64,000 nucleotides of DNA from positions 448,387-512,386 of the forward strand of contig JBFIJM010000001.1 of the NCBI GenBank assembly GCA_041600715.1, in the 5' to 3' direction. Under the pieces are notes generated by a model that had not been told where the DNA came from, did no database searches, and was given only the letters and a program-made list of their open reading frames with translations. Shown piece after piece: positions 1-46,094 of the stretch. The first letter of the stretch is position 1. Each line of letters begins with the position of its first letter. Source of the DNA: Candidatus Saccharimonadales bacterium. GTDB taxonomy: Bacteria > Patescibacteriota > Saccharimonadia > Saccharimonadales > 2-12-FULL-41-12. Made by a program: the position numbers and the translations under genes.

Positions 1-622
1 CATACGCACTAGGTTCAAATATAAAGTTAGCTTCACTAATAATATCTTCCCCCTGATCAGACTTCTTACCCTGTTCAGACACTGCTTTACTTAGCTCTAT
101 ACGCTTTACGTCCTGCACCATCAATGATATGTACTGCTGGTAATATACTGATGCCGTCTTGTACTTCTGAACATATTTGATAATTGGAGTCACGTTAATA
201 TTCTGATCTTTTTCTGGTAGTTTGAAATATTTCTCAAAACTAATGCCTTTTTGACTTAGCTGTATAGCACCATGATGTCCAATAACAATAATGTCTTGCT
301 TATTTGCATCATAAGTTTCTAGCATGTAACGAATAAGTTTTTGGTCAATATCGCCACTAAAACCACCCTCTGCTGTGATTACTATAAATAACTCTTTATC
401 AATAACATCCGTGTCACTAGTACTTCGACCAAATCTAAATAAGCTATCTACTCGGAGTTGGGTGTATATAGCCCAAAGAGCATCAAAAAACTCGGTAGCT
501 TGAAGTACCTGGTTCTTGATTTTGGCAATCTTCATGCTGGCAATTCCTTCAAATACGCTACTCATCTGAACCATGGCAGACACGCCGGCGCGTTTCTTTT
601 CAAGCTCTTGTAGTCTGCTCAT
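1..622 (-). CDS. atpG: F1 ATP synthase gamma subunit, N-terminal ~207 codons (gene runs off the window start)
   Basis: Not in the ORF track. Manual minus-strand translation from ATG 622-620 is open to position 1: [22 protein letters not shown]...[18 protein letters not shown]...[14 protein letters not shown] start/stop overlap with atpA; gamma-like ITxxxGxxG and FIFEPS motifs; canonical position after alpha. Confidence 0.8.
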
Positions 623-2046
623 CTTTTAAGCTCCACCACACACTTGGTCCTCAGTTCGTCACGAACCGCGTCAAAGTCCTCTTCTTTTTTGATTTTTGCA
701 CCGTATTCTTTAATGTTCGCCTTCAAGGCATCGATGTCCAGTTTTAAACTATCATCAGAATTAAGCACAATATCCATCATGAGTTGTTGCTCGTATAACG
801 AAAAAGTTTCTGACGGGCCCTGGTTAAGAACTTTAAAAATATTCTTTCCTTTCTCTAGGGCAATTTTTCCTTCTAGAGCTAACTCTGATCCAAAATGAGA
901 GAATTCTTCTGCTTCACGATAAGCAGCTAAGGTCTTTAATGTTTTTGCGGCTAGACCCTTTTGTCGCTTGTTGTGGCCTACTCCACCAATACGCGTCACA
1001 CTCAGCCCAGTATTAATCGCAGGTCTAATTCCGCCACGGAATAAGTCCATATCAAGAATCCACTGACCATCAGTGATAGACATAATGTTTGTCGGTAAGT
1101 AAGCAGTGATATCGCCATTCGCAGCATGAACTAGTGGCACGCTAGTTAAGCATTTTCCGGTACTATCCAGACGGCCAGCTCGCTCTAGCAAGCTAGAGTG
1201 AGCGAAGAACATATCACCAGGGTATGAATCACGACCAGGACTAGTACCCACCATTAGGGCCATCTCTCGAACCGCATGGGCATGTGAGGTCAGATCGTCA
1301 TAAATAATAATCGTATCGTTATCGCATTCTTGCCAGAAGTACTCTGCCATTGCACAGGCCACATATGGCGCAAGATAGCTCATAACCAAAGATTCAAACA
1401 TAGTAGATACAACCACCACAGCCGTCTCTAGAGACCCGGTCTCTTGTAATTTTGATAGCAGGTCATCTATATCGCTTCGTCGCTTTGCTATCAAGCAGTA
1501 GACCACAAGTTGATCTGTGTTCTTCTGATTGATCGTAAGCTGAGTTGCAAGGGTACTTTTCCCAGACTTTCCATCCCCAAGAGCAGCGATACGCTGACCG
1601 CGAACCACTGGGAAGATAGCATCTATCGCTGTTATGCCACTCTCTAGCTGAGATTCTAACAATTTACGCTCATATAAAGGTGGGGCAACATTAAACACCT
1701 TACGTGTGCCGTCTGGGGCTATAGAGCCCTTTCCGTCTAGCGGTTCACCATTCACAGAGATTACTCTACCGACAAAGTCTTTACCAACTTTGCAGACTAG
1801 CTCCTGATGCTGAACAACAGCGAGCATGCCAACGCGAAGGTTTTTACTCCCGAGATGCAAAATAATTACCAACTCTTCAGTAACTTCCTGTACAAAACCC
1901 TTACTTCCATCCTCAAACATGATTAGCGCCTGCACGCTTACCGGGTGAAGTCCTTTAACGTTTATCAAGAACTTATCTACAGCTACAACTTCGCCAACCG
2001 GCTGACCACTAGCAACCATTTTATCGAAATGTTGGTTATTATCCAT
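619..2046 (-). CDS. atpA: F1 ATP synthase alpha subunit
   Basis: 475-aa ORF. P-loop GDGKSGKST; alpha-type C-terminal motif [32 protein letters not shown]; sits between delta-like and gamma-like genes. Confidence 0.9.
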
Positions 2047-2563
2047 TGGATTCCTCGGTCTTAGCTCTAGTAACCTCAGCTATACTCTTGATTAACTCTG
2101 CCCTGCTTTCCACAAAACGGTGCCTCAGGCTCATATCGAACAATTTATTTGTAGTGCGGACTGTGCATCCCGCAGCGATGGTTGGCTGTAATCCTACCTC
2201 AAGTAACAATACTGGATTGATATTACTTCTAAGCCACGACACCGTCTGTAGAAGAAACTGAGCTGATGGCTCAACAGCAAAACTCATGTGTATCCGGGGC
2301 GCGTGAACACTAAACCCAGTAAGAGCGTTCAGTAACTGTGTACGATGTGACGCATCAAGAAGTGAAACGCCATTTATAGATGCGACCTCCTCTAAAGATA
2401 CACTGGTTTTAGGCATCGTAACCGCCTTACCGCCAGATCGTAATGACGCCTGATTTAGCCAATCATCTAGGTTTTTTAGCTCCCGTATTACACGAGAAAG
2501 ATCAACCGAACTCACTAGTCGCGATGGAAGCTTTAGCCCTTCTTGTTTGTGTTGGTCGCTCAT
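2039..2563 (-). CDS. atpH: ATP synthase delta (OSCP) subunit, divergent
   Basis: 174-aa ORF. Size and position between the b-like gene and atpA; 8-nt overlap with atpA. Sequence is too divergent for motif-level proof. Confidence 0.6.
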
Positions 2564-2576
2564 AATATTTGTTGTT

Positions 2577-3197
2577 TTAAGTTCCTAAATTAATATCATC
2601 AATTATCGCCTGCTTATTCCTCTCTAATTCGGCCATGATAAACTCAAGTTGATCTTCAAGGCTTATCTGGTTTCCAATTGCACTTAACACATAGTGGTTA
2701 ACAATGGCAGCCATATTGGTACTAAACTGCTCGGTCAAACGCTGTTTCTCAGCGCCCATCTGGTGTTCTAGCTGTTGACCCATCAACTCACGTTGTTGCT
2801 CTACTGTAGCCTGGGTCTTTTCTATGGACTCTAGTGCAAGTTGTTTAGCGTCATTAATCGATTCTTCATACTTAGTGAAAGCTTCTGTCAGAGTTTTTGT
2901 TATCTCTGTCTTCATGTAATCATTAATCTGTGAAGTAGTAAGCCGAAGATCCTGTTGTAGAAACATGGCATTTTCGCCAATAATTTTCTCGAAGTGCAAT
3001 CTTCCCCTGTTTCTAAGTTCTTCTCTAAACTCGTCGTTGAATATATGCTCAATATCGGTTTCTGCTACTTTTGCATAGTCTGGGTCTTCTATTGGAGTAG
3101 CAGTACCCTTACCTAGTCTTACTGCAACCCAAATAAATGCGAAAGTTGCAGACAGTAACGATCCGACGATCAGCCCTGTCTGTATCCATGATTCCAT
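2577..3197 (-). CDS. atpF: ATP synthase F0 subunit b-like (one N-terminal TM helix plus long charged coiled coil)
   Basis: 206 aa. N-terminal hydrophobic helix (IQTGLIVGSLLSATFAFIWVAV) followed by E/K/Q-rich helical sequence; located immediately upstream of atpH. Confidence 0.6.
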   Translation of the reverse strand: MESWIQTGLIVGSLLSATFAFIWVAVRLGKGTATPIEDPDYAKVAETDIEHIFNDEFREELRNRGRLHFEKIIGENAMFLQQDLRLTTSQINDYMKTEITKTLTEAFTKYEESINDAKQLALESIEKTQATVEQQRELMGQQLEHQMGAEKQRLTEQFSTNMAAIVNHYVLSAIGNQISLEDQLEFIMAELERNKQAIIDDINLGT

Positions 3198-3245
3198 TTG
3201 TCCGCACCCCCTAGATTGTTCTGTTGCTACAAAACGAGCAAAACG

Positions 3246-4091
3246 TTAAAGCTTTAGTAGTAAATATACCCCAAAAATGCCTGTAATGAAAACTATTAAG
3301 CTCATTATTACCACTTGAAATAGTCCTCGGTAGATGGATGCTTTAGAAAGTGGATTACGTCCAACAGAGATCACACTGCTTCTAACCCCGCTATACAGCA
3401 TGGTGCCAGCAATAATCGATGCCCCCGCAAAAACGGCTAAACCAATAAATAGTTTAGTGCTACTAACAGGTTTATCCGCCACATCTTCGGCGAATTTCTG
3501 TAAAGCATCAGGTACTTTGTCTTTTTCAGGAATTTTGAGAGAGGGGTTCTTCCCAAAAGCCACATCTACTTGAATACGTCCTATTTGTACTTTTTTATTA
3601 TTTTTTCCGTCAACTTCGCCAATAGAGTCGCCACCTCCCTTAAAGTCACCCGCTGCGACACCAATAACATAGGGCGACTTCTCTGTAGCTTTTGCGCCTA
3701 TACCAGGGGAGGACGACACGCTAATGTAATCGCCTCGTTTAATAGACCCATTTTCATTGCTTACTAGAACCTCGTAAGGGCCCGCACTAGCAACAAATAT
3801 ACGACGATCTTCACTACTTATAGTTACTGGGGAATCATTCTGTTCTGCAACCACTCCCTTGAACCTCTCAGCGGACTCTTTTGTTAGTGCACTAACTTTG
3901 GTCTCGTCGCCTTCTACTCCTACTACCAACATACCCCTTTGGAGTTTTTCATCTGAGGCATAACCCTGAAGTACGGTCTGAGCAGATCCCGGCAGGACAA
4001 CGCTCATCATTATCAATATTACTAGCGCACCAAAAGCTAGACCCCGCTGGCTATATACTCTTCTTTTAACAGATGTGTTTATTTTTGGCAT
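3246..4091 (-). CDS. Exported/membrane protein of unknown function with C-terminal two-helix hairpin
   Basis: 281 aa. N-terminal signal/anchor (GLAFGALVILIMMSVVLPGSAQT), ~190-aa soluble domain, then two C-terminal TM helices joined by the polar loop VGRNPLSK. Occupies the slot where atpB/atpE normally lie. Confidence 0.7.
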   Translation of the reverse strand: MPKINTSVKRRVYSQRGLAFGALVILIMMSVVLPGSAQTVLQGYASDEKLQRGMLVVGVEGDETKVSALTKESAERFKGVVAEQNDSPVTISSEDRRIFVASAGPYEVLVSNENGSIKRGDYISVSSSPGIGAKATEKSPYVIGVAAGDFKGGGDSIGEVDGKNNKKVQIGRIQVDVAFGKNPSLKIPEKDKVPDALQKFAEDVADKPVSSTKLFIGLAVFAGASIIAGTMLYSGVRSSVISVGRNPLSKASIYRGLFQVVIMSLIVFITGIFGVYLLLKL

Positions 4092-4127
4092 AGTGTTGCA
4101 ATCTTATGCATAGTATAGCGCTGTAGT

Positions 4128-5279
4128 TTAGTTTTGGGCAAGTGTCTCAGCAATCGAAGCCACTAATCTCTCAACATCCTGTTGGCTAGTCTGGCGACCC
4201 ATTGTAAACCTAAGCGACCCTGATATTTGCTGGTCGCTTAGGTTCATAGCCTTCAGAACATGTGACGGAACATCACTACTGGCGCTACATGCAGAACCGG
4301 TTGATGCACTAAAACCCATCTCATCGAGCATCATAATTATTCGCTCGTTATCCTGCCCCTCAAGAGTAATATGTAAATTGTTTGGCAAACGGTGCTTCCT
4401 GTGGCCATTAATTTTTGCTCCTGGAATACGGCTTATTAACTGATCAAAAAATAAATGTTGCAAAATCTGAAGTCTGTCGACTTCAATACTTCTTAGCGCT
4501 TGGGCCTTTTGTAGTGCAACACTAAAACCAACAATTTGTGCTAAGTTCTCGCTCCCGCTTCTTAAACCTCTCTCCTGGCCACCTCCGTATAAAATTGGCT
4601 CCAGTTGCAAACCCGACTTTACATAAAGTATTCCTGATTGCTTTGGGCCGTACATTTTACCCCCGTTCAGGGTTAACATATCTACGCCCAATCTATGTGC
4701 ATGAATATCTAGATAATTAGACGCTTGGGCACCATCAGTATGAAAATATAGCGGAGTAGGATTTCCGACTTCTTTACGCTGTTTACGTATAATTTCTAGC
4801 TCTTTAGCAATCTTAGCGATTGGTTGGACTGTCCCTACTTCGTTACTTGCGAGTATTATACTGATCAACACAGTCTCTTCATCGATTTTACCTATCAAAG
4901 ACTCAATATCTACAAGGCCTTTATCGTCTACATCTGCAGTTTTAACTTGATACTTTTCCGCAGGAGCGCTTATCGACTCATGCTCTATGGCCGATATTAC
5001 AATATTCCCAGATGGAAACTGGCTCATTACTCCTCTAATCGCTAAGTTGTTTGCCTCGGTAGCCCCTGCTGTAAATATTATGTCGACCGGCTTAACTCCA
5101 ATTACTTCAGCTACAGTTTTTCGCGAATCTTCAAGCACGCTTTTTGATTTTCTAGCTGACTCGTATATTGCTGAAGGATTAAAAAAACAACCTTCTAAAA
5201 AAGGTGTCATTGCGTTAATCACATCTGTGTCCAGAGGCGTTGCAGCCGCATAATCAAAATATCCTGATGGTACCGACAT
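4128..5279 (-). CDS. Cysteine desulfurase (NifS/IscS class V aminotransferase)
   Basis: PLP-lysine context LNGGKMYGPKQSG; active-site Cys in STGSACSA; FDYAAATPL N-terminus. Start moved to ATG at 5279 (MSVPSGYFDY) because the longer ORF overlaps the upstream gene that stops at 5281. Confidence 0.85.
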   Translation of the reverse strand: MSVPSGYFDYAAATPLDTDVINAMTPFLEGCFFNPSAIYESARKSKSVLEDSRKTVAEVIGVKPVDIIFTAGATEANNLAIRGVMSQFPSGNIVISAIEHESISAPAEKYQVKTADVDDKGLVDIESLIGKIDEETVLISIILASNEVGTVQPIAKIAKELEIIRKQRKEVGNPTPLYFHTDGAQASNYLDIHAHRLGVDMLTLNGGKMYGPKQSGILYVKSGLQLEPILYGGGQERGLRSGSENLAQIVGFSVALQKAQALRSIEVDRLQILQHLFFDQLISRIPGAKINGHRKHRLPNNLHITLEGQDNERIIMMLDEMGFSASTGSACSASSDVPSHVLKAMNLSDQQISGSLRFTMGRQTSQQDVERLVASIAETLAQN

Positions 5280-10910: not shown

Positions 10911-11313
10911 GGGGCTGACTTTAAGCTCGACATTGAACCTTTACAGATAAATCCGCGTGTCGCTTGTCCAGCGTTATAGGACAAACCCTTTAAATGCAAC
11001 ATTTAAAGACGCACGTGCAGCAGTAGCTAACCTCTTTGAGCGCAGTAACTTTGCATTTGCAACAGCCTAAGTTAATTCTTAGTGCCACCTACTACTACGA
11101 CACCAGATAGAAGTAGCAGGTGTTATATCATCTGGTTGCTGTAAGTCCCGTATGTTTTCCGGAATTTACCTAAGACTTTGAAAACTGCTGATTCTGTATT
11201 TTTGTTTGTTTACCGTATAGGGTCAAAAGAAATTTCAAGCAAACTACGCACGTAGAATATTTATCAATGTATAGTCGATGGACGCGGAGGGCAGTGCTCC
11301 GCCAGCTCCACCA
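10911..11313 (+). ncRNA. ssrA: tmRNA (transfer-messenger RNA)
   Basis: 5' GGGGCTGACTTTAAGCTCGAC and 3' GGACGCGGAG-GGCAGTG-CTCCGCCAGCTCCACCA, giving an acceptor stem with the G3:U pair and encoded CCA. Internal tag frame ends ...ANLFERSNFAFATA-TAA (stop 11068-11070). Flanked by a promoter and a terminator. Confidence 0.9.
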
Positions 11314-22968: not shown

Positions 22969-23043
22969 GGCCTCATCGTCTAACGGTTAGGACACCAGGT
23001 TTTCATCCTGGCAATCGGGGTTCGATTCCCCGTGAGGTCACCA
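22969..23043 (+). tRNA. tRNA-Glu (anticodon TTC), CCA encoded
   Basis: Manual cloverleaf: GGCCTCA/TGAGGTC acceptor, anticodon stem CCAGG/CCTGG with loop TTTTCAT, T arm CGGGG-TTCGATT-CCCCG. Confidence 0.9.
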
Positions 23044-23079
23044 ATCTAAAAACCCCAGCTTCGTCTGGGGTTTTTAGAT
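23044..23079 (+). terminator. Hairpin terminator directly after tRNA-Glu
   Basis: ATCTAAAAACCCCA / TGGGGTTTTTAGAT 14-bp arms with 8-nt loop; A/T tracts on both sides. Confidence 0.8.
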
Positions 23080-23080
23080 T

Positions 23081-23206
23081 GGCAGGCTCACTCGAGCCAG
23101 CCCGAAACCCGCAGTGGTTCGTTCATGACGATCACGCACAGGAGTTTACTCCGAGCATGTGAGGGGAAATGGTTGTCGCTAAGCGACAACGGATTCCGTG
23201 AGGTCA
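23081..23206 (+). other. tRNA-Glu-linked structured insert ending in a degenerate copy of the tRNA 3' end
   Basis: Ends with GATTCCGTGAGGTCA (23192-23206), against tRNA GATTCCCCGTGAGGTCA (23024-23040). Contains hairpins at 23032-23062 and GTTGTCGC-taa-GCGACAAC (23172-23190). Confidence 0.45.
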
Positions 23207-37610: not shown

Positions 37611-37639
37611 TTGCTACAACAGGGGTAATCTGCTATTAT
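37611..37639 (+). promoter_or_regulatory. Sigma70-type promoter upstream of tRNA-Lys
   Basis: TTGCTA (37611-37616), 17-nt spacer, TATTAT (37634-37639). tRNA starts at 37659. Confidence 0.5.
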
Positions 37640-37658: not shown

Positions 37659-37735
37659 GGGCCAGTAGCTCAGCTGGTTAGAGCACCTGCCTCTTAAGCA
37701 GGGTGTCGAGGGTTCGAGTCCCTCCTGGCCCTCCA
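37659..37735 (+). tRNA. tRNA-Lys (anticodon CTT), CCA encoded
   Basis: Manual cloverleaf: GGGCCAG/CTGGCCC acceptor, anticodon loop CTCTTAA, T arm GAGGG-TTCGAGT-CCCTC. Confidence 0.9.
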
Positions 37736-37739
37736 CGCA

Positions 37740-37767
37740 AGAACCGTCCTTCTGGGCGGTTTTTTCG
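37740..37767 (+). terminator. Hairpin + T-run terminator directly after tRNA-Lys (proximal)
   Basis: AACCGTCC-ttct-GGGCGGTT followed by TTTTT. Confidence 0.7.
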
Positions 37768-37904
37768 TGATTGATCTTTGGGGTCACGAATTCATGACAC
37801 GCCAAAGGGTGGAGAGGGTGAGGATTGCCTGTGGCAATCTGCAAGGGAGACAACTCTTGCAAACTGGTTTGCAGAGATGTTGCGACGGGGTCGCAGAATG
37901 TGAC

Positions 37905-37925
37905 CGAGTCCCTCCTGGCCCTCCA
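37905..37925 (+). repeat. Second copy of the tRNA-Lys 3' end (21/21 identical to 37715-37735)
   Basis: Direct reading of both copies. Confidence 0.95.
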
Positions 37926-37963
37926 AACTAAAATACCCTACCTTGCCGTAGGGTATTTTAGTT
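37926..37963. terminator. Second (distal) hairpin terminator following the duplicated tRNA-Lys end
   Basis: AAACTAAAATACCCTAC-cttgcc-GTAGGGTATTTTAGTTT, 17-bp arms. Confidence 0.75.
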
Positions 37964-38063
37964 TGGTGTTTTGGGCGGACTCAAACCTGAGACTTGGATT
38001 TTCTTCAGAAAATACAGTTATCGAGCGGTTCGGTCGACAAAGTCGTGCGCTTGCCCCTCCTTG
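37964..38063 (+). other. Second, older-looking tRNA-linked insert (related to the one after tRNA-Arg-TCT)
   Basis: Shares GGTTCGGTCGACAAAGTC (38027-38044, 16/18 with 43867-43884) and GTGCGCTTGCCCCTCC (38045-38060) with the 43.9-kb insert. Ends in a degenerate T-arm/acceptor-like CCCCTCCTTGG. Confidence 0.35.
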
Positions 38064-42013: not shown

Positions 42014-43540
42014 GTGATCATGACCAACACAAACGAAAAAATAGGACAGTTAATTTATCAGATCAGGCAAGAGCGTGGTTTTACACAAGCTGAGTTTGCA
42101 AGAAGACTTGGCACCAGTCAATCAGCCGTAAACCGTATCGAAAAAGGTCGACAGAACCTCAGTCTAGAGACATTAGGTAGAATTAGCGACGTACTCAATA
42201 AGCAGATCATTAGCCTCGGTGGAGGTGCGGTAAACCTAAGGATAGAAGGCGGACATGAACTCAAAGGGAGCATAGAAACTAAGGTTTCTAAAAATGCTGC
42301 GGTTTGTTTGTTATTCGCTGCGCTTCTAAACAAAGGCACCACAAGACTTAAGCGTATGCCGAGAATAGAAGAAGTAAACCGACTTATAGAAGTACTGACA
42401 AGCATAGGAGTAAAAGTCCGATGGATGGCTAATAACGACTTAGAGATTCGACCACCAGAAGTCCTGCTACTCGACAAGATGGATAAAACCGCTGCCCGAA
42501 AAACACGTAGTGTGATCATGATGCTAGGTCCTCTAATGCATCTGTTTGATGAGTTCAAAATCCCCTATGCAGGGGGGTGTAAACTTGGGAGCAGGACTGT
42601 TCAGCCACATCTCTTCGCTCTTGAAGAATTTGGAGTTAACATTACTGCTAAGACCGGTCATTATCATGTTGTCGCCAAACACAAAATTCCTGAAACAATA
42701 ATATTATACGAATCTGGCGATACAACCACAGAGAACGTCATCATGGCAGCATCCCGCGTAGACGGAGAGGTAACAATTAAGATGGCTAGTGCTAATTATA
42801 TGGTTCAGGATCTCTGTTATTTCTTAAAAAAACTTGGCGTTAAGATTTCAGGAATAGGCACCAGTACTCTTGTTATTCGTGGCGTAAAAAATATTCGAAA
42901 GAACGTTACTTATCATCCATCTGAAGACCCAATAGAGTCAATGACATTTATAGCAGCAGCGGTTACTACAAACTCCAGTATTACAGTTAAGCGTGCACCG
43001 ATAGAGTTTGTGGAGTTAGAACTTTTAAAACTTAAAAAAATGGGTCTTTCTTTTGATGTCAGCCCTCATTACAAGGCTAACAATGGGTACACAGACCTTG
43101 CCGATATTACTATCCATAAACATGACGGTAAACTTACAGCTTTAGAGGAAAAAATTTATGCTCGTCCATTCCCTGGCCTAAACATCGACAATCTACCGTA
43201 TTTCGTGCCGATTTCTGCAGTAGCGAAAGGTCGCACTCTTATACACGACTGGGTGTATGAAGAAAGAGCACTTTATTATACCGAGATGCGCAAACTTGGA
43301 GTGAATGTCACGCTAGCTGATCCTCATAGAGCTTACATAGATGGGCCAACAAAATGGAGCGTTGCAGACGTAGTATGCCCTCCCGCCCTTCGTCCAGCGG
43401 TCCTACTGCTCATTGGTATGCTAGCAGCACCTGGTACTTCTATCCTACGTAATGTCTATTCTATCAATCGTGGATACGAGGATCTTGCCGAAAGACTAAA
43501 TCAAATCGGTGCTCAGATAGAAATTATCAACGATCTATAA
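42014..43540 (+). CDS. murA: XRE-type HTH domain fused to UDP-N-acetylglucosamine 1-carboxyvinyltransferase
   Basis: Residues ~8-65 are HTH_3-like (IRQERGFTQAEFARRLGTSQSAVNRIEKGRQNLSLETL). The remainder is MurA-like (SKNAAV Lys motif, catalytic Cys in PYAGGCKLGSRTVQPHL, two-lobed EPSP-synthase-fold length). Confidence 0.8.
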   Translation: MIMTNTNEKIGQLIYQIRQERGFTQAEFARRLGTSQSAVNRIEKGRQNLSLETLGRISDVLNKQIISLGGGAVNLRIEGGHELKGSIETKVSKNAAVCLLFAALLNKGTTRLKRMPRIEEVNRLIEVLTSIGVKVRWMANNDLEIRPPEVLLLDKMDKTAARKTRSVIMMLGPLMHLFDEFKIPYAGGCKLGSRTVQPHLFALEEFGVNITAKTGHYHVVAKHKIPETIILYESGDTTTENVIMAASRVDGEVTIKMASANYMVQDLCYFLKKLGVKISGIGTSTLVIRGVKNIRKNVTYHPSEDPIESMTFIAAAVTTNSSITVKRAPIEFVELELLKLKKMGLSFDVSPHYKANNGYTDLADITIHKHDGKLTALEEKIYARPFPGLNIDNLPYFVPISAVAKGRTLIHDWVYEERALYYTEMRKLGVNVTLADPHRAYIDGPTKWSVADVVCPPALRPAVLLLIGMLAAPGTSILRNVYSINRGYEDLAERLNQIGAQIEIINDL

Positions 43541-43798: not shown

Positions 43799-43835
43799 AA
43801 ATAAAACACCTATTATTTGATAGGTGTTTTATTTT
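43799..43835. terminator. Hairpin terminator directly after tRNA-Arg-TCT
   Basis: AAAATAAAACACCTAT-tatttg-ATAGGTGTTTTATTTT. Confidence 0.8.
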
Positions 43836-43937
43836 GACAGCTAGCTGAAGCGGGCATCGAACCACAGGTTCGGTCGCCCAAGTCACGCACAAGAATGAAT
43901 TCCGAGCATGACTGCAGGCGTGCGCTACCCCTCCCGA
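43836..43937 (+). other. tRNA-Arg-TCT-linked structured insert, related to those after tRNA-Glu and tRNA-Lys
   Basis: Contains TCACGCACAAGAATGAATTCCGAGCATGAC (43883-43912, ~80% identical to 23032-23061) and blocks shared with 38027-38060. Ends in CCCTCCCG (43930-43937), matching the tRNA T-arm/acceptor junction 43783-43790. Confidence 0.4.
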
Positions 43938-43986
43938 TTGATCATCACCCACTCTACGCCTCCTTAGATCTTATTTATTACAGTAG

Positions 43987-44130: not shown

Positions 44131-44140
44131 TTCAAGAGAA

Positions 44141-44163
44141 GTCAAGAGTTGCTTGGCTTTTTT
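44141..44163 (+). terminator. Terminator after tRNA-His
   Basis: GTCAAG-agtt-CTTGGC hairpin followed by T6. Abuts the convergent gene end. Confidence 0.55.
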
Positions 44164-45689: not shown

Positions 45690-45797
45690 ATGAAGCAAAG
45701 AAATTGGGATAAGATTGCAACAGAACAGTTCAAGTCTATGCCTAAAGACTTTCAGGACGATTGGAAAGATTTAAGAAACACTGTGAATAGTCGGTAG
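45690..45797 (+). CDS. Possible small protein (35 aa)
   Basis: ATG preceded by AGGAG 7 nt upstream; MKQRNWDKIATEQFKSMPKDFQDDWKDLRNTVNSR. No other support. Confidence 0.3.
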   Translation: MKQRNWDKIATEQFKSMPKDFQDDWKDLRNTVNSR

Positions 45798-45816: not shown

Positions 45817-45845
45817 AAATACCCGGGGTAAACCTGGGTATTTTT
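45817..45845 (-). terminator. Distal hairpin terminator following the duplicated tRNA-Pro end
   Basis: AAAATACCCGG-ggtaaa-CCTGGGTATTTT (plus-strand reading), symmetric A/T tracts. Confidence 0.7.
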
Positions 45846-45849
45846 AATA

Positions 45850-45865
45850 GTCGGGGTGAAAGGAC
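45850..45865 (-). repeat. Second copy of the tRNA-Pro 3' end (16/16 identical to 46021-46036)
   Basis: GTCGGGGTGAAAGGAC read directly at both positions. Similarity continues imperfectly into the flanks. Confidence 0.95.
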
Positions 45866-46020
45866 ATTGCACTTTGTGCTCCTCCGCTCAATCGTGCTCA
45901 ATGCAAGCTTTTGCGCGCGATTTCGCTACGCCAAACCTTCCGTTCGCTTTGCTCACTCATCAGGTTATTGTCACTTCGGAAAAATTAATATAGCCTAGCA
46001 AAGCTAAGCTATATTAATTG
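45850..46020 (-). mobile_element. 171-bp insert between tRNA-Pro and its distal terminator, bounded by duplicated tRNA 3' end
   Basis: Same architecture as at tRNA-Lys: tRNA, proximal terminator (45978-46018), ~110-nt GC-richer hairpin-rich segment, repeat, distal terminator. No ORF. Confidence 0.35.
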
Positions 46021-46094
46021 GTCGGGGTGAAAGGACTCAAACCTTCGACCTCTCGGTCCCAAACCGAGCGCGCTATCAACTGCGCCACACCCCG
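46019..46094 (-). tRNA. tRNA-Pro (anticodon TGG), CCA encoded
   Basis: CGGGGTG/CACCCCG acceptor, anticodon loop TTTGGGA, T arm GAAGG-TTTGAGT-CCTTT. Confidence 0.9.

Follow-up and report, generated by a model that had tools for sequence, protein, structure and literature searches.

The DNA directly downstream of the tRNA-Pro(TGG) gene is probably one copy of an RtT-like family of tRNA-trailer elements, trimmed like a tRNA after transcriptional read-through. In the window, meaning the entire 64-kb stretch of Saccharibacterium DNA that was analysed, such a 'unit' sits singly between two hairpins on the same strand as its tRNA. Each unit consists of a partial T-arm copy of the upstream tRNA that encloses a structured core of 60-110 nt. 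Its parts follow in the order T-stem 5' strand, core replacing the T-loop, T-stem 3' strand, acceptor 3' strand, discriminator and CCA or its remnant. The unit lies past the tRNA's own hairpin, and a second hairpin comes next. One core type can occur behind different tRNA species, always with the local tRNA's segments. Among relatives, the units are gained, lost, tandem-duplicated, fused and decayed, and they behave as fast-turnover, recombination-prone passengers of tRNA genes.

The tRNA-Pro locus and its sister units

The tRNA-Pro locus comprises the following features, listed in the direction of transcription:

46166-46138, minus strand: promoter-like site TTGAAT-17-TATACT before tRNA-Pro (promoter/terminator scan)
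46019-46094, minus strand: host gene, tRNA-Pro(TGG), which encodes its CCA and supplies the copied 3' end (ARAGORN; Rfam tRNA model, 64.6 bits)
45983-46019, minus strand: proximal hairpin B, with about 17 bp in its stem and UUUUU directly after it (MFE and centroid fold)
45941-45958, minus strand: conserved 5' scaffold motif GAGUGAGCAAAGCGAACG, which recurs in the L372 and L120 units
45932-45940, minus strand: T5*, a copy of the tRNA T-stem 5' strand and first T-loop bases, GAAGGUUUG (direct reading)
45890-45922, minus strand: central hairpin of the type A core, with 5 bp, an internal loop, 2 bp, a CAR/GA loop and 4 bp (alignment A3; type A model R1)
45866-45889, minus strand: core 3' part, up to the tRNA-copy junction (alignments A1-A3; fold)
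45850-45865, minus strand: segment A, 16 nt identical to positions 59-74 of tRNA-Pro (repeat search and shuffles)
45817-45845 (approximate), minus strand: distal hairpin B' (fold; 71% identity in register to hairpin B)

The sequence-only reading that preceded this analysis had pointed to a 16/16 duplicate of the tRNA-Pro 3' end, and the repeat search bears this out. The window contains two exact copies of GTCCTTTCACCCCGAC and no more, one at 46036-46021 and the other at 45865-45850 (171 nt start to start). When up to two mismatches are allowed, 0.01 chance matches are expected and 0 of 100 shuffles contain two or more. Segment A spans the end of the T-loop, the T-stem 3' strand, the acceptor 3' strand, the discriminator and the first C, and the CCA of tRNA-Pro reads CTA in the downstream copy. 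The imperfect flank similarity described in the same reading is also real, as the repeat can be followed in register through both hairpins, for 52 nt in all and with 71% identity. The stems of B and B' show paired changes, and the base of hairpin B takes in the final base of tRNA-Pro. The tRNA-derived part proves larger than the 16-nt repeat then described: the repeat itself stands, and a copy of the T-stem 5' strand is found in addition at 45940-45932, about 65 nt upstream of it.

The Pro insert is 115 nt long and contains no ORF, the whole unit measures about 170 bases, and model R1 scores it at 80.4 bits. Within the core 3' part, a small hairpin (GCAC-AAA-GUGC) lies at 45879-45869, and this part matches its counterpart in the L372 unit at approximately 85% identity, as judged by eye. 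The motif GAGUGAGCAAAGCGAACG precedes, with one change, the T-stem copy in the tRNA-His-linked unit of L372, and the metagenome unit L120 has a 15-nt exact match to it. A 35-aa ORF on the plus strand (about 45690-45797) is convergent with the Pro unit, and the distal hairpin may also end the transcription of this ORF. An opposite-strand gene is called near B' in Logan contig L001.

Two terminators had been proposed at this locus. Both hairpins exist (46019-45983 and about 45845-45817) and are stable in the fold, but the strict terminator scan calls neither, since each has an AT-rich stem with only a short run of T; their role as terminators is therefore putative. Hairpin B would serve either in leaky termination or in RNA processing. 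At the Lys unit, the scan calls the distal hairpin alone. The folding z-score of the whole Pro region (-5.0) is due to the two flanking hairpins: the 115-nt insert plus repeat without them has ordinary stability for a single sequence (z = +0.32), and the Arg unit alone is likewise thermodynamically unremarkable. The thermodynamic case for structure is consequently dropped.

Four of the seven tRNA genes in the window (Glu, Lys, Arg-TCT and Pro) are trailed by the same layout of tRNA, hairpin, core (here 100-130 nt) and copy of the tRNA's own T-stem and 3' end. The three sister units are as follows:

23041-23206, plus strand: Glu unit behind tRNA-Glu(TTC), type A-like core (R1 30.8 bits, E 8e-4; sequence)
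37736-37966, plus strand: Lys unit behind tRNA-Lys(CTT), type C core (repeat search; alignment A4)
37736-37769, plus strand: Lys proximal hairpin
37814-37818 with 37910-37914, plus strand: Lys T-stem P1
37819-37843, 37846-37886 and 37889-37905, plus strand: Lys helices P2, P3 and P4
37905-37925, plus strand: Lys tRNA copy, 21 nt with CCA
37923-37966, plus strand: Lys distal hairpin (called by the terminator scan)
43799-43944, plus strand: Arg unit behind tRNA-Arg(TCT), type A2 core (blastn-short; alignment A2; R1 65.7 bits)

The parallel drawn earlier between the Pro and Lys loci is upheld, with the exact 21-nt repeat CGAGTCCCTCCTGGCCCTCCA at 37715-37735 and 37905-37925 (0 chance matches expected), and so is the observation that the two inserts are dissimilar, as their cores belong to types A and C, respectively. 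The exact-repeat search misses the Arg and Glu units because their tRNA-end copies have decayed: the Arg copy reads ACCCCTCCCGATTGATCA versus GTCCCTCCCGGGGTACCA, and the Glu copy, GATTCCGTGAGGTCA, has a 2-nt deletion and no CCA. With the Pro copy also lacking CCA, the tRNA ends are imperfect in three of the four window units, which speaks against a tRNA-like 3' end being strictly required. The Arg unit is 86% identical over 58 nt to the L012 unit (E 1.7e-9, blastn-short), and an orthologous copy of it is carried by L372. Only single units occur in the window, with no tandem repetition.

Core types and covariation

Support for a conserved fold comes from comparison among units. In alignment A3, which holds nine units, 90.9% of the cells in the type A hairpin are paired versus 66.0% in shuffles. 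Compensatory changes affect 10 of the 11 pairs, a result matched by 0 of 500 shuffles, and slid controls reach at most 41% pairing. The four-helix junction of type C, evaluated in alignment A4 (four sequences), has 94.2% of cells paired versus 73.4% in shuffles, with compensatory changes in 23 of 39 pairs where 9.0 are expected (0 of 500 shuffles match). Every cell of the closing T-stem of type C is paired, and two of its five pairs are compensatory. T-stem pairing of type A in alignment A3 is not significant (80% versus 78% in shuffles). Covariation of this kind fits an RNA fold and a single-stranded DNA fold alike. The G-U pairs of type C are invariant or nearly so and would be C-A mismatches on the other strand, which favours folding of the transcribed strand.

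Among the type A and type C units that were examined, T5* is without exception the T-stem 5' strand of the local tRNA. Its variants are GAAGG, GGAGG, GCAGG and GTCCG at Pro, GTGGG at His, GCCGG at Asp and GAGGG at Lys. Many units also contain an inverted copy of the tRNA T-arm just past the first hairpin. A general 5' segment complementary to the tRNA-end copy was considered and rejected, as ungapped duplexes in 67 units are barely better for their own than for foreign tRNAs (mean 7.4 versus 6.7 bp). Because this contrast is weak, the helix is claimed only where an alignment supports it: for types B and E, for RtT, and for type C via its T-stem.

Several familiar identities were also rejected. 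Rfam searches of the Pro and Lys inserts, at the gathering threshold and at E up to 10, return no known RNA family. A hammerhead-like string (CUGAUGAG...CGAA, about 45962-45943) is without stem II, without an Rfam match and unconserved in relatives. A second, split or intron-containing tRNA-Pro does not fit, since the inserts yield no match with ARAGORN or the Rfam tRNA model, D and anticodon arms are missing and the acceptor 5' strand CGGGGTG is absent. An opposite-strand tRNA would have an unpaired T-stem.

Spread, turnover and competing explanations

About 70 further units are found in other Saccharibacteria and in metagenomes whose GC contents range over 0.28-0.70; these units lie behind Pro, His, Asp, Arg and Tyr tRNAs. 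Units behind tRNA-Pro number 56 at 120 metagenome loci and 8-10 at 80 Saccharibacteria genome loci. Together with the four window units and RtT, these copies strongly support the earlier suggestion of an element class or process instead of a one-off rearrangement. The empty-site comparison proposed with that suggestion gave the foreseen polymorphism: only about 10 of about 40 comparable ymdB-tRNA-Pro loci are occupied, and a relative with 87% YmdB identity has a unit behind tRNA-His, a gene that has none in the window. Model R1 was applied to the window and about 1.9 Mb of loci. All of its matches at E below 0.01 whose context was checked lie in tRNA trailers on the tRNA's strand, with no significant match among these contexts at a site clearly unrelated to tRNA genes. 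A few matches in contigs without a called tRNA (e.g. L011 and L186) finish with a tRNA-Pro-like 3' end. Among the significant matches with checked context in the window and these loci, there are no dispersed MITE- or REP-like copies clearly away from tRNA genes.

Cores and tRNA segments combine in a modular way. Type C cores are seen at Lys, Pro and His; the His unit of L372 joins the 5' motif of the window Pro unit to the T-stem and 3' end of tRNA-His; and the window Arg core is 86% identical to a Pro-linked core from a genome with about 56% YmdB identity. At tRNA-His, the single terminator of the window aligns with the proximal and not the distal hairpin of the occupied L372 locus. By this alignment, the tRNA-adjacent hairpin is the ancestral terminator at this sister site, as distinct from tRNA-Pro, and the new material lies beyond it. 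The tRNA-Pro site itself is rearranged in one close relative (L372) and truncated in another (L373). Such rearrangement and truncation, along with the patchy occupancy, are not expected of a host-beneficial RNA under steady selection. Tandem arrays occur in metagenome loci L132 (period 155) and L167 (177 plus 181), and at some loci the duplicated tRNA end and hairpin are identical. In L186, partial tRNA-Pro halves, each trailed by such a unit, flank a series of toxin-antitoxin cassettes.

Much of this behaviour could also be produced by a non-autonomous mobile DNA element, or its footprint, aimed at tRNA 3' ends. Integron attC sites, the CTX phage attP hairpin and IS200/IS605 ends are the models for such an element, in which the hairpins would be folded single-strand recombination signals, the tRNA-end repeat would serve for attachment or targeting and any RNA would be incidental. 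The direct repeat starts in the T-loop, like many integrase attachment sites, whose sublocation classes within tRNA genes are said to have been set out by Williams in 2002. Occupied and empty sites among relatives, several core types at one locus in related genomes, single cores behind different tRNAs, in-place decay of single copies, tandem copies, identical duplications and the L186 arrangement are all compatible with mobility. The order X, hairpin, reverse complement of X, core, X is moreover what integration of a folded hairpin site is expected to leave. A mobile element is nonetheless unlikely. The unit is just about 170 bp, and for at least 10 kb around each of the window units there is no gene for an integrase, a transposase, an HUH enzyme or a reverse transcriptase; the neighbours there are YmdB, RNase Y, DUF1295, FolD, MurB, SHMT and similar genes. 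No such enzyme recurs elsewhere either, as clustering of ORFs within 3.5 kb of 66 units finds no recurring protein family beyond lineage synteny. The ancestral proximal hairpin at tRNA-His is the reverse of classical attL/attR logic, the significant type A matches with checked context keep to tRNA trailers, the invariant G-U pairs favour folding of the transcribed strand, and the core strings are not found as real units in the viral collection. A phage or viral origin was rejected in its own right: the tRNA-Pro tail pair gives two chance matches in coding sequence, and the type A1 core string gives 47 matches, of which the type A model recognises 0. The type C pattern is too loose for its search of the viral collection to be informative.

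Identical duplications of tRNA end and hairpin, tandem arrays and decaying copies would equally follow if a tRNA 3' half and terminator were duplicated as a neutral accident, the palindrome extended by slippage or template switching and the product left to drift. The first hairpin often reaches into the CCA and is followed by the inverted T-arm copy, which suits this origin. It is improbable all the same, because slippage leaves the cores unexplained: they are non-tRNA sequence, of few types, found in distant genomes and behind different tRNA species, with helices kept through compensatory changes, and the identity of the window Arg core to a Pro core is high despite the low YmdB identity of their genomes. 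Significant covariation, contrary to a neutral by-product, is already indicated. Type V-K transposons use tRNA-homing crRNAs, and omega RNAs consist of a scaffold and then a 3' segment. The units resemble both in joining a scaffold to a tRNA-matching 3' segment, and the scaffold is kept while the tRNA-matched segments follow the neighbouring tRNA. That they are guide RNAs, whose 3' guide of 16-21 nt would bring a recombinase or a homing system of TnpB- or Cas12k-like kind to tRNA genes, is nevertheless very improbable. The supposed guide always fits the gene immediately upstream and never a distant target, and its segment is damaged in three of the four window units. A candidate effector is absent for at least 10 kb around the window units, does not recur elsewhere and is lacking at the E. 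coli RtT locus.

The preferred reading, that of an RtT-like trailer element trimmed like a tRNA, predicts a particular route of expression. In the scan of the Pro and Lys loci, no promoter-like sites lie inside the units and all are upstream of the tRNAs. For E. coli rrn operons, PMC8144298 describes sRNAs that arise from read-through between dual terminators, and PMC2190699 describes RNase E cutting just past each encoded CCA in E. coli tRNA precursors. Having no promoter of its own, a unit would depend on polymerase that starts at the strong tRNA promoter and passes the first hairpin, and the transcript would end at the second. The helix and the tRNA-like NCCA end would then let tRNA 3'-trimming enzymes set a protected, defined 3' end. 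The predicted product is a stable small RNA showing the T-stem and acceptor strand of its tRNA.

Comparison with RtT and other known systems

By shared architecture, the closest known system is the set of 178-bp repeats at the E. coli tyrT-tyrV locus (RtT RNA, RF00391; gene rttR). Knowledge of the repeats goes back to the late 1970s and that of their RNA to 1991. RtT and the window units both lie directly downstream of a tRNA, on the same strand and without their own promoter. They are also similar in size, at about 170-180 nt for RtT units and about 170 for the window Pro unit. Each 178-bp unit ends in the exact last 19 nt of tRNA-Tyr, including CCA, and the annotated rttR runs from 8 nt past tyrV to the CCA of this 19-nt copy. 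The RtT consensus is closed by a helix between GgGaaGG and CCuuCcC that comprises the T-stem and 2-3 pairs beyond it, while ccaCCACCA stays unpaired as a 3' tail. Its internal hairpin, with a GCC-NNN-GGC top, resembles core types B, C and D. RtT is present in 4726 of 5426 E. coli genomes, at 1-9 matched places per genome. Bosl and Kersten (1991) are cited for a proposed tie to tyrT transcript processing and the stringent response.

The two groups also differ. In E. coli the units are tandem, with no hairpin between tRNA and unit, and RtT has been described at tRNA-Tyr in enterobacteria, whereas the window units are single, have two hairpins and come from a Saccharibacterium, where the host tRNAs are Pro, Lys, Arg and Glu. 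The present units comprise at least three or four distinct core types. At its gathering threshold (45 bits), RF00391 finds no RtT in the whole window, where only tRNAs and tmRNA match; the window's true tmRNA lies elsewhere, at 10911-11313. At E up to 10, the model has no RtT match in the Pro and Lys regions, while the E. coli units score 133-137 bits as a positive control. One metagenome unit, L135, gives a full-length sub-threshold match (32.5 bits, E 0.0075), and such matching is confined to the high-GC metagenome type E. As R1 has no match at the E. coli locus, type A was rejected as a direct homologue of RtT. Because the models do not cross-detect, the tie to RtT is one of architecture and a single weak bridging match rather than of demonstrated homology.

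A wider interpretation is offered tentatively, at less than even confidence: RtT may be the sole described member of a large, so far unrecognised superfamily of modular, T-arm-embedded elements that join the ends of tRNA transcription units in many bacterial phyla. It is equally tentative that a few scaffold cores re-associate with different tRNA species, on each occasion with exact copies of the local T-stem 5' strand and the last 16-21 nt. Possibly, though again short of an even chance, the units are especially dense in the present Saccharibacterium, where they follow four of seven tRNA genes. Re-association with exact local copies would mean either templated copying from the local tRNA or its gene, possibly via an RNA intermediate, or an RNA whose activity needs a match to its own tRNA. 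If the units do copy the local tRNA through a dedicated mechanism, or act on their cognate tRNA, they would represent a new layer of tRNA-linked biology. As far as the literature was searched, RtT has so far been treated as an enterobacterial curiosity, and the full texts searched contain no description of such units outside E. coli. The same architecture in a genome-reduced Saccharibacterium and in metagenomes turns a lone oddity into a comparative dataset of covarying core types, with which the conserved parts, the co-occurring proteins and the production of RNA become testable for RtT. For annotation, the units explain stray tRNA 3' fragments and 'double terminators' beside tRNA genes, and they caution that not every tRNA-end repeat is an integrase scar.

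Integrated islands and prophages with attL/attR sites share with the units a tRNA 3'-end direct repeat beginning in the T-loop, an intact tRNA gene and both occupied and empty sites among relatives. Unlike them, the window inserts are about 115-135 nt, geneless and without a nearby integrase, have a conserved covarying structure where attachment regions have AT-rich arm sites, and, judging from the tRNA-His sister site, appear to retain the proximal and not the distal flank as ancestral. The sRNA 3'ETS-leuZ, another one located in a tRNA 3' trailer, belongs to the same comparison class as the E. coli RNAs rrA, rrB and rrF (PMC8144298). The units share with this class a place between a first, putatively leaky terminator and a second at the end of a stable-RNA operon; they too have no promoter of their own and would be expressed by read-through. 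In contrast to the units, the RNAs of this class contain no copy of the upstream gene's 3' end and form no modular family across many tRNAs. Finally, tmRNA and the Y RNA YrlA (PMC4201824) resemble the units in presenting a T-arm and acceptor-like module that could engage tRNA-processing or tRNA-binding proteins. These RNAs keep the T-loop intact, possess a full acceptor stem of their own and do not copy a tRNA next to them, whereas in the window units the core takes the place of the T-loop and the acceptor 5' strand is missing.

The tRNA-Pro repeat and its counterparts in the window

The tRNA-Pro gene of the window is followed by a partial copy of its own 3' end. Within the 64 kb, the 16-mer GTCCTTTCACCCCGAC has two exact occurrences 171 nt apart (46036-46021 and 45865-45850), against a shuffle expectation of 0.01 matches with two mismatches tolerated, which confirms the exact duplicate reported in the sequence-only reading. 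The copy spans tRNA position 59 in the T-loop to C74, and the CCA of the tRNA reads CTA in it. The similarity also noticed in the flanks extends, by a repeat finder, to 52 nt at 71% identity, so that the hairpin after the tRNA (proximal) and the hairpin after the copy (distal) are related and differ by paired changes. Both were taken for terminators in that reading; the hairpins stand, with stable folds, but a strict terminator scan accepted neither, so they are treated here as putative terminators. The folding z-scores of the whole regions are -5.0 for Pro and -7.6 for Lys, and those of insert plus copy alone are +0.32 and -2.7, respectively; the strongly negative values come from the flanking hairpins.

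The like layout claimed at tRNA-Lys is present, with a longer repeat, and two further units were found, so that four of the seven tRNA genes in the window carry one. A unit here is a trailer element behind a tRNA gene, consisting of a hairpin, a structured core, a copy of that tRNA's 3' end and usually a second hairpin.

Features of the window
46019-46094, minus: tRNA-Pro(TGG), CCA encoded (ARAGORN and Rfam)
37715-37735 and 37905-37925: 21-nt Lys repeat, including CCA
43799-43944, plus: Arg(TCT) unit, third in the window (blast of all inserts against the window)
23041-23206, plus: Glu(TTC) unit, fourth in the window (R1, the covariance model of the type A core)
10911-11313, plus: tmRNA gene (Rfam, 62 bits)

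The Arg(TCT) unit has a hairpin at 43799-43835, a type A2 core with 86% identity over 58 nt to a tRNA-Pro-linked core of L012 (L-numbers denote loci or contigs from other Saccharibacteria genomes or metagenomes) and a decayed copy, consisting of CCCTCCCG and scattered matches; it lacks a distal hairpin and is directly followed by the tRNA-His promoter. The Glu unit has a hairpin at 23041-23082, whose stem begins with the tRNA's CCA, a type A-like core and a copy, GATTCCGTGAGGTCA, with a 2-nt deletion and without CCA. No downstream copy of its 3' end was found for the tmRNA gene.

The tRNA loci concerned adjoin housekeeping genes (RecA, RecX, TsaE, RNase Y, YmdB, DUF1295, pyruvate kinase, Mur ligase, FolD, MurB, SHMT and an HTH-fused EPSP-synthase-family protein), and no integrase, transposase, reverse transcriptase or RNA-guided nuclease lies among the genes around the unit-bearing tRNA loci of the window. 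The HTH-fused protein (42014-43540, plus; 508 aa) joins an N-terminal Cro/C1-type HTH to a MurA/AroA-like domain, an unusual fusion that also appears in a Logan contig annotation. Both tRNA-Pro and tRNA-Lys have a promoter-like site upstream (46166-46138 and 37611-37639, respectively); none were found inside the Pro and Lys inserts. The Pro distal hairpin may act on both strands, as a small ORF (45690-45797, plus; called with 35 aa in the matching Logan contig) converges on it; L372 has a similar gene call of 38 aa.

Anatomy and conserved fold of the units

The tRNA-derived part of the Pro unit exceeds the 16 bp first noticed. About 65 nt upstream of the 16-nt copy, GAAGGUUUG (45940-45932) matches the 5' strand of the tRNA-Pro T-stem and the first T-loop bases. 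The segment is identical to the local tRNA's T-stem 5' strand in all type A and C units examined (GAAGG, GGAGG, GCAGG or GTCCG for Pro, GTGGG for His, GCCGG for Asp and GAGGG for Lys). A unit thus consists of a copied tRNA T-arm and 3' end with a foreign core in place of most of the T-loop. Recurring core types can be distinguished, which pair modularly with local tRNA segments, and the Pro and Lys inserts, already judged dissimilar, belong to different types.

Core types and their carriers
Type A1: window Pro, L004, L016, L177 (Asp), L372 (His)
Type A2: window Arg, L012, L076
Type C: window Lys, L006, L165, L096 (His)
Types B, D, E and F: other lineages

Many units also have an inverted, partly degenerate T-arm copy after the first hairpin, and a generic test of this complementarity over all units gave a weak signal. 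Both the proximal and the distal hairpin often open with the CCA itself (ACCA...UGGU; window 46017-46020, 37923-37966 and 23041-23082, and many other loci), so that the primary transcript would have the tRNA 3' end base-paired; the palindrome reaches further into the T-arm in several loci. A hammerhead-like core, CUGAUGAG...CGAA (45943-45962, minus), was rejected as a ribozyme candidate since it lacks a stem II, is poorly kept in relatives and matches no Rfam family.

The central hairpin of type A (window Pro 45922-45890) is 90.9% paired across nine units versus 66.0% in column shuffles, with compensatory changes in 10 of 11 pairs; none of 500 shuffles reached the observed values, and slid controls were at most 41% paired. 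The closing T-stem pairing is not significant in this alignment because the set hardly varies there. For type C, RNAalifold predicts a four-helix junction closed by the T-stem, in which 94.2% of cells are paired (73.4% in shuffles) and compensatory changes are seen at 23 of 39 pairs versus 9.0 expected (0/500 shuffles), figures that come from a small sample of four sequences (Lys, Pro, His, Pro) and a shuffle test that is not tree-aware. Two type C G-U pairs, which would be C-A mismatches on the opposite strand, are invariant or nearly so. The best reading, in view of the size of the effect and the slid-control results, is that the tRNA-sense strand has a conserved fold.

Distribution, turnover and origin

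Saccharibacteria (TM7, Patescibacteria) species representatives match the flanking YmdB at no more than 63% identity. YmdB was used to retrieve 80 Saccharibacteria loci, of which L004, L006, L012, L013, L016, L040, L072 and L076 have this layout behind tRNA-Pro: tRNA, hairpin, 100-130 nt, a 14-29 nt copy (usually with CCA) and a hairpin, the copy following each genome's own T-stem and acceptor sequence. In metagenomes, a scan for tRNA-Pro tails paired at a distance of 142-172 nt gave 120 loci, in 56 of which a tRNA-Pro (TGG, CGG or GGG) precedes a non-tRNA copy of its end, on contigs with a GC of 0.28-0.70. Another 14 are tandem tRNA genes, and no tRNA was called at the first copy in the remaining 50, which include tRNAs cut off by the contig start, chance coding-repeat matches and a few unit arrays. 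In about a quarter of the metagenome loci the duplication runs through the hairpin or the unit is tandem (three copies with a period of 155 in L132). Units also follow tRNAs for His and Arg (L096), Asp (L177) and His (L040, L372). With four of seven window tRNAs and these loci sharing one layout, the earlier inference of an element class rather than a one-off rearrangement is right.

Units turn over among relatives. On a YmdB tree, about 10 of the roughly 40 loci with tRNA-Pro adjoining ymdB carry a unit, with types A, B and C scattered; among the nearest relatives of the window, L006 has type C, L004 has type A, and L002, L003 and L008 have no unit. Closer relatives were found through YmdB homologues. 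L372 (YmdB 87% identity) has an identical tRNA-Pro, a different proximal hairpin and a composite trailer (10939-11215, plus), in which a unit with a truncated copy (GGTCCTTTCA) is fused to the 3' part of a second, ending in a full copy and CCA. At the same site L373 (73% identity; 2983-3148, plus) has only the T-stem copy and part of a core, without a tRNA-end copy. At tRNA-His, a type A1 unit whose 18-nt copy is perfect is present in L372 (13215-13448, minus), and the corresponding window site (44131-44161, plus) is empty. The empty-site comparison suggested earlier therefore shows occupied and empty sites side by side. The L372 His and window Pro units share the motif GAGUGAGCAANGCGAACGG; only their T-stem copies and 3' ends differ, each matching the local tRNA. 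The single tRNA-His terminator of the window aligns with the L372 proximal hairpin and not with the distal one, which places the unit (core, tRNA copy and second hairpin) beyond the ancestral terminator, the opposite of integrase-mediated insertion into a tRNA.

L186 (about 380-4300 in search-pattern orientation, the minus strand of the stored locus) holds four 50-nt partial tRNA-Pro(CGG) 3' halves. All four have repeated CGTGAT-like motifs in front, and three have one or two RtT-like units behind. The halves are separated by small toxin-antitoxin-like gene pairs, by eye HigB/HigA-like and VapB/VapC-like. This locus resembles an array of small integrated cassettes, so integrating elements can carry units along with their attachment sites.

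The main rival to a trailer RNA is that the units are non-autonomous mobile DNA with the hairpins as recombination signals. The patchy distribution, the decay of copies in place, the L186 array and the succession of tRNA end, hairpin, inverted copy, core and tRNA end all favor it, but we consider it unlikely: no enzyme was found, the unit lies past the ancestral terminator, units are confined to tRNA trailers and absent from viral contigs, and G-U pairs are conserved. The two views are not exclusive, and all data would fit a structured RNA module that is expressed with tRNA trailers and also spreads among them. Pure duplication followed by drift would leave the conserved cores unexplained and is improbable; a guide-RNA role, for which no partner protein was found, is more improbable still.

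Comparison with RtT and other named RNAs

The family has one described relative, RtT, the RNA of the E. coli tyrT-tyrV repeats (Rfam RF00391, gene rttR); the literature searched yielded no description of its breadth, its modular cores or its density in this Saccharibacterium. In L190, a type E unit trails tRNA-Pro, and just past this unit lies a sub-threshold Rfam match (859-958, minus; 34.3 bits, E 5e-4) to the Yersinia sRNA Ysr224, which may be a further trailer element of this kind that already has a name.

At tyrT-tyrV, 178-bp repeats, one between the two tRNA genes and three after tyrV, each end in AATCCTTCCCCCACCACCA, the last 19 nt of tRNA-Tyr, and score 133-137 bits with RF00391. In the RF00391 consensus, GgGaaGG pairs with CCuuCcC, that is, the T-stem and two or three more pairs, enclosing several hairpins and leaving ccaCCACCA unpaired, the same T-stem-closed plan as a type C unit. 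Of 5426 complete E. coli genomes, 4726 carry RtT, at 1-9 matched places each. The rttR gene is one of the repeat units, according to PMC3318445 (citing Bosl and Kersten 1991), and its annotation starts 8 nt after tyrV and ends on the final A of the copy's CCA. A recent preprint links RtT to tyrT transcript processing and probably to the stringent response.

RF00391 matches the high-GC metagenome unit L135 over its full length below threshold (32.5 bits, E 0.0075-0.02). It gave no match in the window, nor did R1 on the E. coli locus, and the window units are therefore classed as RtT-like in architecture and in their presumed way of working, and not as RF00391 members. The units may be transcribed by read-through from the tRNA promoter, by analogy with the sRNAs between dual terminators of E. 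coli rrn operons (PMC8144298). The 3' end of the unit RNA would probably be matured by the tRNA-end machinery, as suggested by rttR ending on CCA and by RNase E, which cuts after each encoded CCA before exonucleolytic trimming (PMC2190699).
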